Shown: in pieces, positions 8,700 to 28,555 of the stretch | How the letters are laid out: every line of letters starts with the position of its first letter | How positions within the stretch are numbered: position 1 is the first letter of the stretch | Assembly: GCA_035366675.1 (NCBI GenBank) | Contig: DAOSIN010000001.1 | Coordinates: forward strand, 1 to 28,555 | Origin: Salinivirgaceae bacterium | GTDB lineage: Bacteria > Bacteroidota > Bacteroidia > Bacteroidales > Salinivirgaceae | Reading direction: 5' to 3' | Length of the DNA stretch: 28,555 nt | Translations under genes and position numbers: made by a program | The notes under the pieces: generated by a model | Databases searched by the model: none | The model's input: only the letters and a program-made list of their open reading frames with translations | What the model was told of the DNA's origin: nothing

Positions 8700-8712
8700 C
8701 ACAGATTTTGTA

Positions 8713-8740
8713 GTAGAGACGGTGCATGCACCGTCTCTAC
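8713..8740. repeat. GTAG REP-like palindrome, copy 1
   Basis: gtagagacggtgcatgcaccgtctctac is a perfect 28-bp palindrome. Confidence 0.9.
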
Positions 8741-8756
8741 GTTATCTTATGTCAAC

Positions 8757-19672: not shown

Positions 19673-19700
19673 GTAGAGACGGAGCATGCTCCGTCTCTAC
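19673..19700. repeat. GTAG REP-like palindrome, copy 5
   Basis: gtagagacggagcatgctccgtctctac, perfect 28-bp palindrome. Confidence 0.9.
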
Positions 19701-19751
19701 TACTTTACAAACTTTTAACTTATAAAATAAACCCATAAAAACAATAACAAA

Positions 19752-26196: not shown

Positions 26197-26252
26197 GCTA
26201 TTATTTCACTATTTCATCATCAATTTAAGATTACATTTTTGTTAAGTCAACT

Positions 26253-26430
26253 TAATCCACAATTCAAAAGTTGTTGGCTATGTGCATTATTAGTAGGGCG
26301 TGTTTTAAGTAGAGACGGAGCATGCTCCGTCTCTACGTTAAAAACGTTGTCCGCGTGAACCGCATTACTTGGGCTAAAGCCCAAAAAGCCCGTGCGTTAA
26401 TCTAATCCACGACTTGAAAGTCGTAGCTAT
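26253..26430. repeat. Two related TAATCCAC-hairpin-GCTAT elements plus a GGGCTAAAGCCC hairpin, enclosing REP copy 6
   Basis: taatccacaattcaaaagttgttggctat (26253-26281), taatccacgacttgaaagtcgtagctat (26403-26430) and ttgggctaaagcccaa (26369-26384). Confidence 0.6.
26309..26336. repeat. GTAG REP-like palindrome, copy 6
   Basis: gtagagacggagcatgctccgtctctac, identical to the 19673 copy. Confidence 0.9.
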
Positions 26431-26574
26431 TGATACAACAATTGCCTTATTAATAGCCCACAGCCTTCCGTCTTTTTTAACTACCGTGTAAACATTTTTT
26501 AAAACATATTGTTTATATTCAAAAAAGCGTTATTGATAAAAAATCAGTATTAACTTATGTTTTTGAAACAATGT

Positions 26575-26590
26575 CGGCACGCAGTTTGCT
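26575..26590 (+). promoter_or_regulatory. Sigma-54 (RpoN) -24/-12 promoter upstream of the STAS-cheY-cheA operon
   Basis: CGGCACGCAGTTTGCT against consensus TGGCACGNNNNTTGCW. GG at 26576-77 and GC at 26588-89 are separated by exactly 10 nt. Confidence 0.75.
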
Positions 26591-26757: not shown

Positions 26758-27066
26758 ATGTTAACACTGCGTAAAAACGTCAAAAAAACAGAAAAGGAAG
26801 TTAATATCAAACTTTCAGGAGATATTAATATTACAAATAGTAATGAATTAAAAAACATACTGAAAGAGTTTTTAACAGATAATCGTAAAATAAGAGTTAT
26901 CTTTGAAAAAGTTGAAACATTTGACTTGTCAGCTGTGCAATTGCTTTATGCCTTTAAGCGCGAAAGAGAAGCTAAAAAACTTAAAGTACAATACGATGCC
27001 GATTTAAGTCAGTCAGTATCAGTTTTATTACAACATGCCAACATCACAATATTTGATAAAGAATAA
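26758..27066 (+). CDS. STAS-domain protein (chemotaxis-cluster associated)
   Basis: IKLSGDINI...LK......IRVIFEKVETFDLSAVQLL STAS pattern, first gene of the che cluster. Confidence 0.85.
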   Translation: MLTLRKNVKKTEKEVNIKLSGDINITNSNELKNILKEFLTDNRKIRVIFEKVETFDLSAVQLLYAFKREREAKKLKVQYDADLSQSVSVLLQHANITIFDKE

Positions 27067-27072
27067 ATTCCT

Positions 27073-27438
27073 ATGGAGAAAAAAATATTAATCGTTGATG
27101 ATTCAGAAAGTATTCGCGAATTAGTTAGTTTTACTTTAGAAAACGCAGGTCATGAAGTGACCAAAGCTGTTGATGGAGATGATGCTCTTAAATATCTTGA
27201 TGGACGAAAGTACGATTTGATTATCACCGACTTGCATATGCCTAACCTTAACGGCATAGAACTGATAAAGAAAGTTAGGGCTATAGAAGAGTATAAATTT
27301 ATTCCAATATTGTTTTTGACTACCGAGTCGCAAACAGCAAAAAAAATGGAAGCCAGAGATGCCGGTGCTACCGGTTGGATTGTCAAACCATTTGTTCCCG
27401 AGAAGCTACTCGAGGCAATTAAAAAAGTTGTAAGATAA
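27073..27438 (+). CDS. cheY: Chemotaxis response regulator CheY
   Basis: Single receiver domain with D9/D10, phospho-acceptor D53, T83 (LTTES) and K105 (GATGWIVKPF), adjacent to cheA. Confidence 0.9.
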   Translation: MEKKILIVDDSESIRELVSFTLENAGHEVTKAVDGDDALKYLDGRKYDLIITDLHMPNLNGIELIKKVRAIEEYKFIPILFLTTESQTAKKMEARDAGATGWIVKPFVPEKLLEAIKKVVR

Positions 27439-28555
27439 TGGAAGCATTTAAAGAGAAATTTAAAGAAGAAGCCAAAGAACTTATTGCCGAACTTGAACAC
27501 ATGGTACTTAAGTTGGAAGGCAATAGAACCGATAAGTCCATTGTCGAAGAAGTTTTTCGCGTAATGCACTCACTTAAAGGGGGTAGTGCAATGTTCGGAT
27601 TTACATTGATTGATAAATTCACACATTTGCTAGAAAATATTTACGACAAAATAAGGGCAGGAGAGTACCAAGTTACAGACGATATTCTTGATATAACTCT
27701 TAACGCAGTTGACCATTTGCGTAACTTGATAGAAGAAACACCAAAAACAGTTGCACAATTAGAGAAAGATAACAATAAATTTATCGAACAGATTGAGAAT
27801 ATTCTTAGTTCGGGAGTTTTAAAATCAGGCGAATTGAAAACAATGCCCAATGACGATAATATAGAGGAAAGCAAGCACGTAAAAACATATTTTGTCCGTT
27901 TCGAGCCCTCTACCGATTTCTTTCAAGATGGTTCTAATCCACTGTTTTTAATTGACGATATATGTCAGCTTGGAGAAACACTGATTGTCCCGATTTACTC
28001 TAAAATACCAAAATTCGAAAAAATCAATCCAATCGATTGTTACGTCTCTTGGAATATGTTGGTCGCAACAGAAGATGACGTAAATGCGATTATGGATGTT
28101 TTTATTTTTACCAATAAACGTTCAAAAGTTGAAGTCGAAAAACTTTCCGACAACAACTTGTTAGTCGAAAAAACACATAGGAAAATATTGTATGAAACTT
28201 TGTCGAAGAATGAAGATAATTTGTTTGACAAGTTGAGTACTAATGTGTTAAACTTTGAAAAAGCACAAAACGAAAGTGAACCAAATTTTCAAAGACAAAG
28301 AGTGCAGTCTTCACATTCTGGAGAACAGACAATTGCCTCAATACGAGTATCAAGTGAAAAGCTCGACAATTTAATAAACTGGGTTAGCGAACTTGTTACA
28401 ATACAAGCACAACTGTCACTATATACCCAACAAAATCAGTACATTGGATTAGCTCCAATATCGGAAGAGATTGAAAAAATAACTCGCCGTTTACGCGACG
28501 ACGTTTTTAGTATAAGGTTAATACCAGTCTCCAACATGCTTACACGCTTTCAGCG
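27438..28555 (+). CDS. cheA: Chemotaxis histidine kinase CheA, 3'-truncated by the window edge (absent from the ORF track)
   Basis: ATG overlaps the cheY stop (TAATG) and the frame stays open to the end. P1/Hpt FRVMH44SLKGGSAMFG, P2-like YFVRFEP...GSNPLFLIDDICQLG and dimerisation SIRVSSEKLDNLINWVSELV...IRLIPV. Confidence 0.95.
   Translation, partial: MEAFKEKFKEEAKELIAELEHMVLKLEGNRTDKSIVEEVFRVMHSLKGGSAMFGFTLIDKFTHLLENIYDKIRAGEYQVTDDILDITLNAVDHLRNLIEETPKTVAQLEKDNNKFIEQIENILSSGVLKSGELKTMPNDDNIEESKHVKTYFVRFEPSTDFFQDGSNPLFLIDDICQLGETLIVPIYSKIPKFEKINPIDCYVSWNMLVATEDDVNAIMDVFIFTNKRSKVEVEKLSDNNLLVEKTHRKILYETLSKNEDNLFDKLSTNVLNFEKAQNESEPNFQRQRVQSSHSGEQTIASIRVSSEKLDNLINWVSELVTIQAQLSLYTQQNQYIGLAPISEEIEKITRRLRDDVFSIRLIPVSNMLTRFQ

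Follow-up and report, generated by a model that had tools for sequence, protein, structure and literature searches.

The start of a chemosensory operon in a Salinivirgaceae genome, probably vertically inherited and with a non-flagellar output

The window (the whole stretch of DNA analysed, 28,555 nucleotides) ends in the first three genes of what is, with a probability of about 0.8, a vertically inherited chemosensory operon that is typical of environmental Bacteroidales and has a non-flagellar output. The window spans contig C1 from end to end; the assembly is a Salinivirgaceae MAG that is 77% complete in 479 contigs. The features that matter for the argument are the following.

26758-27066, + strand: STAS gene, 102 aa; a small single-domain STAS protein, read as a CheS-like CheA accessory
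27073-27438, + strand: cheY, 121 aa; a CheY-type single-domain response regulator
27438-28555 (contig end), + strand: 5' part of cheA, 372 N-terminal aa with an open 3' end; it encodes P1/Hpt (H44), then at the place of P2 a conserved ferredoxin-like domain (about residues 145-240) and, after a linker, the first part of the P3 dimerisation domain
26575-26590, + strand: weak candidate for a sigma-54 -24/-12 element, CGGCAC-N5-TTGCT, about 170 nt before the STAS start
26230-26475, no strand assigned: copy of a GC-rich hairpin repeat of about 190 bp in the lnt-STAS intergenic region, outside the operon proper

A sequence-only reading of the same DNA had described the three genes as tightly coupled, and the sequence bears this out: STAS and cheY are separated by a gap of 6 nt (27067-27072), and the stop of cheY overlaps the start of cheA in a TAATG at 27436-27440. 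Translation and Pfam show three intact open reading frames in which all catalytic residues are kept. In CheY these are D9 and D10 of the acidic pocket, the phospho-Asp D53, T83 and K105, and in CheA the H44 of the motif RVMHSLKGG; D53, T83, K105 and H44 had been named in that reading as well. CheY matches Response_reg at 101 bits (E 4.7e-29); for CheA, Hpt (53.6 bits) and H-kinase_dim (36.2 bits) both exceed the curated cut-offs. These matches and the full operon found in relatives mark the stretch as the genuine start of a che operon. Since the window is the whole contig, the remaining operon genes truly lie beyond it, as had been stated. A run of seven A residues lies just after the start codon of cheY, at about 27079-27085, and in the assembly of the closest relative the poly-A run at the cheY start has a -1 shift.

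Operon content and descent

In relatives, the full operon runs STAS-cheY-cheA-cheW-cheR-REC-(kinase look-alike without the H-box histidine)-cheD-cheB, an order common to the 22 loci that were mapped. REC and the kinase look-alike have a fixed place between cheR and cheD, and in several lineages among the mapped loci there is no separate REC gene. The look-alike has intact ATP-binding boxes, and the histidine of its H-box is replaced by Asn in 13 of 13 orthologues. The closest complete relative, G006, has a CheA that is 89% identical and carries the whole operon next to the same divergent lnt neighbour. In a full-length CheA orthologue of 686 aa (89% identical), the part seen in the window is followed by HATPase_c and a CheW-like P5 domain; H44 is invariant in 17 orthologues.

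The downstream che genes that the sequence-only reading expected are thus intact in relatives but unassembled in this MAG. A profile search for the CheW domain found no match in the 77%-complete MAG, and tblastn of the MAG with the CheW, CheR, REC, kinase look-alike, CheD and CheB of a relative returned no orthologues. Because the remaining operon is not assembled here, the completeness of this copy is deduced from synteny. The same absence could be taken to mean that this copy is a decaying remnant, a truncated or broken operon with only its 5' genes left. Decay would also fit the loss, in this subclade, of two upstream genes that relatives keep, the insertion of a repeat in the promoter region and the shifted poly-A run in the closest relative. 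It is nevertheless highly improbable, since none of the three genes in the window has a broken frame or has lost a catalytic residue, and gaps are to be expected in a MAG that is 77% complete in so many contigs. The far flank of the operon, an M28 T9SS peptidase, was located by tblastn at the very start of contig C116, as expected of an assembly break and not of a deletion. The genome also still has at least four MCP genes, with MCPsignal matches over the cut-off on four contigs; its chemoreceptor genes lie outside the operon.

The hairpin repeat in the intergenic region does not occur in the aligned lnt-STAS intergenic regions of the two closest relatives. At least nine further copies, 86-90% identical, are found on other contigs of the same genome, and the core of the repeat occurs at dozens of sites in the genome. 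Rfam gave no match on the whole window. The sigma-54 candidate is present in the window and in the two closest relatives, in which the -12 part reads TTGT, and rpoN is present in the genome. In 19 other loci the 3.2 kb that precede cheY lack the motif, and it was therefore rejected as a feature of the family.

The operon is widespread among related genomes. All 12 other Salinivirgaceae genomes that were searched have it, with CheA orthologues in 6/6 and 6/6 genomes of the two genera of the family. Across the order (GTDB Bacteroidales), a CheA match is present in 109 of 301 sampled genomes, about a third, and in 86 of 208 sampled genera. The earlier statement that che clusters are uncommon therefore fails for the order and holds for the rest of the class Bacteroidia as sampled, where che genes are rare in the other orders searched; the phylum-wide CheW sample behind this is dominated by other, mostly che-positive classes and informs only on the sampled Bacteroidia orders.

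Such a distribution bears on the suggestion, made from the sequence, that the operon was horizontally acquired. Under this explanation a foreign F7/F8 island from Proteobacteria would have landed recently beside lnt. The gene order and the STAS gene do resemble proteobacterial clusters, the solved structure most similar to CheY is that of a Vibrio CheY, and the scarcity of che genes in the other Bacteroidia orders sampled points the same way. However, the same operon adjoins lnt in close relatives, and the contig is not chimeric at the lnt/che junction. In the CheA tree, all 26 Bacteroidota CheAs, Cytophagales included, form one clade (100/99) whose inner branching follows taxonomy. The GC content of the operon is 34.3% compared to 35.1% for the window, and GC3 is like that of the neighbouring genes. 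With the operon in every other family genome searched, a recent transfer is very unlikely, and vertical inheritance within the order is the reading that we prefer; an ancient transfer between phyla could still lie further back.

The STAS protein, CheY and CheA

The STAS protein scores just under both Pfam cut-offs (STAS_2, 27.2 bits against 29.2; STAS, 21.2 against 22.6), and its membership of the family is instead argued from its orthologues and from an alignment, free of gaps, with STAS proteins annotated in other che clusters. In 10 Bacteroidales loci an orthologue precedes cheY; D56 and Q61 never vary among them, and L57, S58, L62 and A65 hardly do. The core of the protein aligns without gaps to annotated che-cluster STAS proteins of alpha- and gamma-proteobacteria, and with the alphaproteobacterial ones sampled it shares only about 21-22% identity. 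A single STAS domain of about 100 aa placed directly upstream of cheY-cheA is what a CheS-like accessory looks like. In PMC12654446, which summarises Dogra et al. 2012, S. meliloti CheS is described as a STAS protein that is encoded before cheY1-cheA and binds CheA.

A predicted complex places the STAS protein on CheA residues 162-205, with a score of 0.85 compared to 0.01 for the best control. In the calibration of the complex models, the mark was reached by 58 of 80 solved complexes and by 2 of 110 mismatched pairs. Three runs of the model share at least 96% of contacts, with a partner pLDDT of at least 86, and the modelled interface is made of the invariant STAS residues and the conserved middle domain of CheA. 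The model suggests that STAS binds the P2-position domain of CheA, as has been reported for rhizobial CheS. The window thereby offers a concrete predicted STAS-CheA interface that is open to test.

The middle domain of CheA is modelled at a pLDDT of 92 with a beta-alpha-beta-beta-alpha-beta fold. Superposed on the P2 domain of T. maritima CheA (VIA-align), the model gives a Z of 7.1 and an rmsd of 3.0 over 77 residues, a match that is tied with many unrelated ferredoxin-like folds and is compatible with P2 without discriminating for it. Foldseek with the same domain gave generic ferredoxin-like matches only, with E above 0.001.

The best solved relatives of CheY are 4HNR and 4H60, both V. cholerae CheY4, at 122 bits; CheY3 (85 bits) and E. 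coli CheY (about 75-83 bits) are weaker. V. cholerae CheY4 (4HNR/4H60) is phosphorylated and does not bind FliM. Across the Bacteroidales loci, CheY is 69-93% identical, whereas CheA is only 40-89% identical.

Output and proposed working of the pathway

FlhA (FHIPEP) was found in 0 of 13 family genomes and in 1 of 301 genomes of the order, the single match being a contaminated MAG. With no FlhA in the family, the output cannot be a flagellum, so the non-flagellar output proposed from the sequence stands and the idea of a genome that encodes a flagellum falls away. PilB/PilT-type ATPases (T2SSE) gave no match over the cut-off in 5 family genomes, with the control positive in 13 of 14 named genomes. 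GldM is present in the family, and GldJ exceeds its cut-off in each of the 4 good family genomes. A literature search on che systems in Salinivirga, Marinilabiliales and gliding Bacteroidetes found no dedicated study.

The gliding/T9SS machinery is one candidate for the output. Phosphorylated CheY would bind a conserved component of the motor or track and bias its direction or reversal, so that the cells perform chemotaxis by gliding. This would suit genomes in which gldJ and gldM are present and genes for a flagellum or type IV pilus were not found. It would also suit the conservation of CheY, which exceeds that of CheA by far, as expected of a protein that has to fit a conserved machine. GldJ occurs in 87 of 98 CheA-positive genomes of the order (89%), but it also occurs in 71% of the CheA-negative ones and in 77% of the order irrespective of CheA. 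The link is therefore weak, and the co-occurrence, which is phylogenetically confounded, was rejected as an argument for gliding. Moreover, none of the 22 loci has a gld or spr gene within the operon or next to it, the literature examined puts the control of T9SS rotation at the outer membrane via GldJ with no Che link, and VcCheY4, the closest CheY with data, is without a known motor target. All told, gliding is a possible output that leans towards unlikely.

A regulatory output has to be weighed against it. Here CheA would feed the second REC and the histidine-less kinase, or the STAS protein would act as a partner-switch antagonist, and the result would be altered gene expression, adhesion or secretion and not movement. 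The fixed position of REC and of the Asn-for-His look-alike between cheR and cheD favours such a branch. So may S58 of the STAS protein, which is near-invariant here and replaced by Ala in the che-cluster STAS proteins of Aeromonas and Pseudomonas; it is a candidate match to the phospho-Ser of partner-switch STAS proteins. Ancestral F7 clusters with STAS proteins have been tied to a stress response (PMC7184735), and the F8 system of P. syringae affects biofilm and virulence traits and not chemotaxis proper (PMC11253619). On the other hand, the operon encodes no response regulator that binds DNA, and it has no gene for a sigma factor, an anti-sigma factor, a PP2C phosphatase or a GGDEF protein. 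The full adaptation machinery (CheR, CheB, CheD) has been retained together with several 34H receptors, as suits the fast sensing of gradients, and the absence of REC as a separate gene in several lineages also weakens the case. A regulatory output is thus plausible and falls somewhat short of probable.

For the operon as a whole, the 34H receptors together with CheW would control the autophosphorylation of CheA at H44, from which the phosphoryl group would pass to D53 of CheY and to CheB. Adaptation of the receptors would be the task of CheR, CheB and CheD. The STAS protein, like rhizobial CheS, would sit on the P2-position domain of CheA with a face formed by D56-L57-S58, Q61-L62 and A65. 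There it may tune which response regulator CheA serves, and it is not read as an anti-sigma antagonist. The non-flagellar output would then be either the gliding/T9SS apparatus, reached via the unusually conserved CheY, or a regulatory branch, reached via the second REC protein and the histidine-less kinase. One could even imagine that the pathway is the missing chemotaxis input of T9SS gliding, with the phosphorylated CheY4-like protein biasing the motor or track and the STAS protein and histidine-less kinase setting the lifetime of the signal, an idea that is speculative and unlikely.

The window itself adds little, being one more copy of which only the first three genes are seen. The wider interest comes from the order, in which about a third of the sampled genomes carry CheA without flagella and, in Salinivirgaceae, without type IV pili. 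Should gliding be steered, the T9SS motor would have its first known chemosensory control. If expression or secretion is steered, a large and ecologically important group, the polymer degraders of sediments and digesters, would join the Che systems with an "alternative function."

Chemosensory class and known systems

The receptors of the genome give an indication of its chemosensory class. Its own MCPs, on contigs C26 and C356, are one heptad shorter per arm (-7/-7 residues) than Tar of E. coli (36H), with 119-120 residues following the hairpin tip, which makes them of the 34-heptad (34H) type. The same difference from Tar is seen in the cluster MCPs of Chondrinema, Sphingomonas, Methylosinus, Aeromonas, and Pseudomonas. 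34H receptors are a minor class assigned to F8 (PMC11253619). In the CheA tree, the Bacteroidota clade joins Sphingomonas/Methylosinus and Aeromonas/Pseudomonas at 98/95, apart from the F7 sequences of E. coli and Vibrio; the references are an opportunistic set of only 11 non-Bacteroidota CheAs with one outgroup, mostly from plasmid-borne clusters. Because the receptors are 34H and the CheA clade lies beside clusters with 34H receptors, we infer from receptor length and the reference tree that the system is F8-like, in or next to the F8 class, and not of the E. coli type of F7. Against F8, the gene order fits "stage 1" F7 equally well and the CheY is closest to an F7 CheY. The bit scores of CheA against the PDB did not separate the E. 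coli type from the T. maritima type. There is no Bacteroidales row among the ACF entries of the CheA class table of Berry 2023, and neither STAS nor 34H is covered in Tran 2008.

The Aeromonas and Pseudomonas HR96 plasmid clusters, which we take to be F8 themselves, share two traits with the operon here: the STAS gene is a neighbour of cheY/cheA, and cheD precedes cheB. The F8-like clusters compared have the order Y-STAS-A, whereas the Bacteroidales order is STAS-Y-A. The Bacteroidales operon further differs from F8 clusters in that it has no internal MCP gene (22 loci mapped), has the inserted REC and histidine-less kinase look-alike, and belongs to hosts without flagella. F8 systems such as cluster II of P. 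syringae pv. tomato use 34H receptors as well (PMC11253619), and the function of F8 is poorly defined even in model organisms.

The resemblance to proteobacterial F7/F8 clusters that was seen in the STAS-cheY-cheA order is confirmed by the ancestral "stage 1" F7 order, anti-sigma antagonist (STAS)-cheY-cheA-cheW...cheR-cheD-cheB (Ortega et al. 2020, PMC7184735). This order, found in gamma-proteobacteria and exemplified by V. cholerae cluster III (PMC7184735), matches the operon of the relatives. VcCheY4, to which the CheY here is most similar, is the CheY of cluster III, and cheZ is absent from both cluster III and the Bacteroidales operon. Nevertheless, "stage 1" F7 has an Aer2-like 36H receptor in the cluster, whereas here there is none in the operon and the receptors of the genome are 34H. 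The Pfam scan of genes at the G006 and G007 loci revealed neither a second STAS protein nor a serine phosphatase (PP2C), which are also "stage 1" F7 traits, and in the CheA tree the branch of E. coli and Vibrio chromosome 2 is separate from the Bacteroidota clade.

The third comparison is with rhizobial CheS. Unlike in that system, CheT was not identified here, and the host is without a flagellar motor that the equivalent of CheY2 could target. The likeness lies in placement and in sequence. As described in PMC12654446, CheS of Sinorhizobium meliloti and Agrobacterium fabrum is a STAS-only protein of about 100 aa encoded directly before cheY1-cheA, the same placement as here, and its operon has a second CheY-like protein and cheD, as does the Bacteroidales operon. 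The motif D-(L/S)-(S/T/A)-x-x-Q-L-L is common to the STAS protein here and the alphaproteobacterial che-cluster STAS proteins.

The che genes at the edge of the contig

Among non-flagellated Bacteroidales, an F8-like che operon is widespread and vertically inherited; the window holds one further copy of it, truncated by the contig end. The three genes present are co-directional and lie at the 3' end, downstream of the divergent gene lnt (apolipoprotein N-acyltransferase, by Pfam).

Features of the 3' end of the window
26230-26475; lnt-STAS intergenic region; GC-rich repeat of about 190 bp that contains a perfect palindromic hairpin; the two closest relatives lack it
26575-26590; upstream of STAS; candidate sigma-54-like element; conserved in the window and the two closest relatives
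26758-27066; + strand; STAS ORF, 102 aa (ORF listing and raw sequence; Pfam STAS_2 and STAS slightly below cut-offs)
27073-27438; + strand; CheY ORF, 121 aa (Pfam Response_reg, 101 bits)
27438 to the final base of the window; + strand; CheA, frame open at the 3' end (Pfam Hpt and H-kinase_dim, both above cut-offs)

The sequence-only reading was correct in what it observed: the ORFs, raw sequence, and translations bear out its gene positions, the 6 nt between STAS and cheY, the TAATG overlap of cheY and cheA, and residues D53, T83, and K105 of CheY and H44 of CheA. CheY also carries D9 and D10. Its interpretation stood in part, since the non-flagellar setting and the likeness to F7/F8 systems held up, whereas recent horizontal acquisition did not.

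In this genus, cheY starts with ATG-GAG (or GGA) followed by a run of A7-A8, which lies at 27079-27085 in the window. The assembly of the closest relative has an A6 run (L017:15800-15830), leading to a stop after six codons of cheY; the difference reflects either an assembly error in the homopolymer or on/off variation of cheY by strand slippage. At locus L022, cheY has a short deletion close to its 5' end.

The region between lnt and STAS differs among relatives. The sigma-54-like element is a candidate only; its -12 part reads TTGT in the two closest relatives, it was not found upstream in 19 other loci, and rpoN is present in the window's genome. The intergenic repeat has at least nine further copies on other contigs (86-90% identity), and dozens of sites carry its 28-40-bp hairpin core, among them two in the window (near 8712-8744 and 19673-19701). 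It resembles a REP- or MITE-like element active in this genome.

The remainder of the operon and its descent

The window is the complete contig C1 of a 2.34-Mb MAG (479 contigs, 77% complete, 36.5% GC), and neither a domain search for CheW nor tblastn for orthologues of the downstream che genes gave a match in that MAG. The complete set is found in the closest complete relative, whose CheA is 89% identical to the window's and whose lnt is likewise divergent beside STAS. There, cheY is followed by CheA (686 aa, with Hpt, dimerisation, HATPase_c, and CheW-like domains), CheW, CheR, a single-domain REC protein, a 307-aa HATPase_c protein, CheD, and CheB, and then by a convergent M28 peptidase with a T9SS sorting domain. 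The orthologue of this peptidase in the window's genome lies on contig C116 (10-2385, - strand), 10 bases from the contig start. Thus, the assembly breaks at the end of C1 and the start of C116 bracket the che operon, with a stretch of about 6 kb left unassembled between them. Relatives have the same lnt/che junction, so the contig is not chimeric at this point.

The order CheY-CheA-CheW-CheR-(REC)-kinase look-alike-CheD-CheB is kept in 22 loci, the most divergent being from a sheep-rumen MAG (CheA identity 40%), and STAS orthologues stand upstream of cheY in at least 10 of them. In the genus Salinivirga, a gene for a DcaP/porin-like outer-membrane protein (420 aa; L018:10751-12013, - strand) sits between cheW and cheR, a slot that holds a receptor gene in proteobacterial clusters. 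A Mutator-family transposase gene directly adjoins cheB in the closed Salinivirga genome (L018:5301-6467, + strand).

The kinase look-alike between REC and cheD (L017:10623-11546, - strand, with orthologues in 12 other loci) has intact ATP-binding boxes. Its H-box reads SHFLSN(V/I)(T/A)NE in 13 of 13 orthologues, as against ...SHE in canonical kinases, so the phospho-accepting His is replaced by Asn. A conserved His is found seven residues upstream of this Asn. Most relatives also carry two extra genes between lnt and STAS, a divergent REC gene and the gene listed below; both are missing there in the window and in its two closest relatives (the closest complete one and that of locus L020).

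Coiled-coil protein of relatives
L018:15411-17156 and L019:13823-15571; - strand; conserved coiled-coil protein of about 581 aa, just upstream of STAS

This protein matched no Pfam family. It has a conserved ...YHDIIRQK(I/M)EHIQ... motif and an acidic ...(V/L)ELF C-terminus, and we take its D-x3-Q spacing and C-terminal peptide to be reminiscent of CheZ. A CheZ-like phosphatase role would be a guess.

The pathway had been proposed to be horizontally acquired. A maximum-likelihood tree was computed from the P3-P5 core of 37 CheAs, and in it all 26 from Bacteroidota form one clade (support 100/99). These are from Salinivirgaceae, other Bacteroidales, their paralogues, and two plasmid copies of Chondrinema (Cytophagales). 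The Salinivirgaceae CheAs nest genus within family within order. In addition, the che stretch has a GC content of 34.3% against 35.1% for the window, and its GC3 resembles that of adjacent genes. Nothing points to a recent acquisition of the operon, although a very old exchange of che genes between phyla may have occurred. Two plasmids of the seaweed isolate Chondrinema litorale (L067 and L072; 121 kb and 231 kb) each bear a che cluster of this clade, in the order (hypothetical STAS-like)-Y-A-W-MCP-R-(B), showing that plasmids, too, can spread the clade.

Distribution and motility apparatus

A CheA orthologue is present in six of six genomes of the same genus and six of six of a second genus of Salinivirgaceae. 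Of 301 genomes sampled evenly across the order Bacteroidales, 109 (from 86 of the 208 genera) show a CheA match at E <= 1e-20, and 98 of these 109 reach E <= 1e-80; many genomes contain two to four paralogues. In a phylum-wide sample, CheW domains are common in other classes but near-absent from other orders of Bacteroidia (the largest family sampled, for instance, had 0 of 87). The che genes are thus rare in much of Bacteroidia and common in this order, so the view that they are uncommon in Bacteroidota is right for the other Bacteroidia orders sampled and wrong for Bacteroidales.

The flagellar export gate FlhA (PF00771) is absent from all 13 family genomes, including a closed one of 4.8 Mb. 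Across the order sample it is above cut-off in only 1 of 301, a genome that is 9% contaminated and has its matches on 1-kb contig ends. The PilB/PilT/GspE ATPase family gave nothing above cut-off in five family genomes, with the control positive in 13 of 14 named genomes. GldJ exceeds its cut-off in each of the four good family genomes; GldM is also present. Across the order, GldJ is found in 87 of 98 CheA-positive genomes versus 144 of 203 others, a co-occurrence that is only suggestive.

The STAS protein and the chemosensory class

CheS of S. meliloti and A. fabrum, whose gene precedes cheY1-cheA, consists of a STAS domain only; it binds CheA and alters the way CheA serves the two CheYs. The window's STAS aligns, with a gap-free core, with STAS proteins of alpha- and gammaproteobacterial clusters and an unnamed 105-aa Chondrinema protein, all sharing the motif D-(L/S)-(S/T/A)-x-x-Q-L-L-x-A. 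D56 and Q61 do not vary across ten Bacteroidales orthologues, and L57, S58, L62, and A65 are almost fully conserved.

The segment of CheA between P1 and P3 forms a conserved domain without a Pfam match; its invariant residues include F155, P157, G165, N167, P168, G179, W205, V221, F222, and F224. Modelled by itself, the domain gives a confident ferredoxin-like fold (pLDDT 92). Its match to T. maritima P2 (Z 7.1) is level with that to many other folds, so the domain is compatible with P2 without matching it specifically. A complex prediction for CheA 1-295 and STAS gave a score of 0.85, whereas the best of three controls reached 0.01. When the tool was calibrated, 58 of 80 solved complexes and 2 of 110 mismatched pairs attained the mark. 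The three runs had 96% or more of their contacts in common, and the partner's pLDDT was 86 or higher. The predicted interface joins CheA 162-205 to STAS 25-39, 56-69, and 89-96, the conserved faces of both proteins. As a prediction, the model supports binding of STAS to CheA; we know of no solved CheS-CheA complex.

Among solved structures, the closest to the window's CheY are 4HNR/4H60 (122 bits; next CheY 85, E. coli CheY about 75-83 bits). These are of V. cholerae CheY4 from cluster III, which is phosphorylatable and does not bind FliM. The MCPs of the window's genome have one heptad less per arm than E. coli Tar (36H) and are thus 34H, a minor receptor class assigned to F8 systems. MCPs encoded within the che clusters of Chondrinema, Sphingomonas, Methylosinus, Aeromonas, and Pseudomonas HR96 are also 34H, and the Bacteroidota CheA clade groups with exactly those clusters (98/95), while E. 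coli CheA and a Vibrio chromosome-2 CheA branch separately. The ancestral "stage 1" F7 cluster (Ortega et al.) comprises an anti-sigma antagonist, cheY, cheA, two cheW, aer2, cheR, cheD, cheB, mcpA, a second antagonist, and a serine phosphatase, and its backbone gene order is the same as in the Bacteroidales operon. Judged by receptor length, CheA tree, and gene order, the system is read as F8-like with a layout like that of stage 1 F7, in keeping with the suspected resemblance to proteobacterial F7/F8-type clusters.
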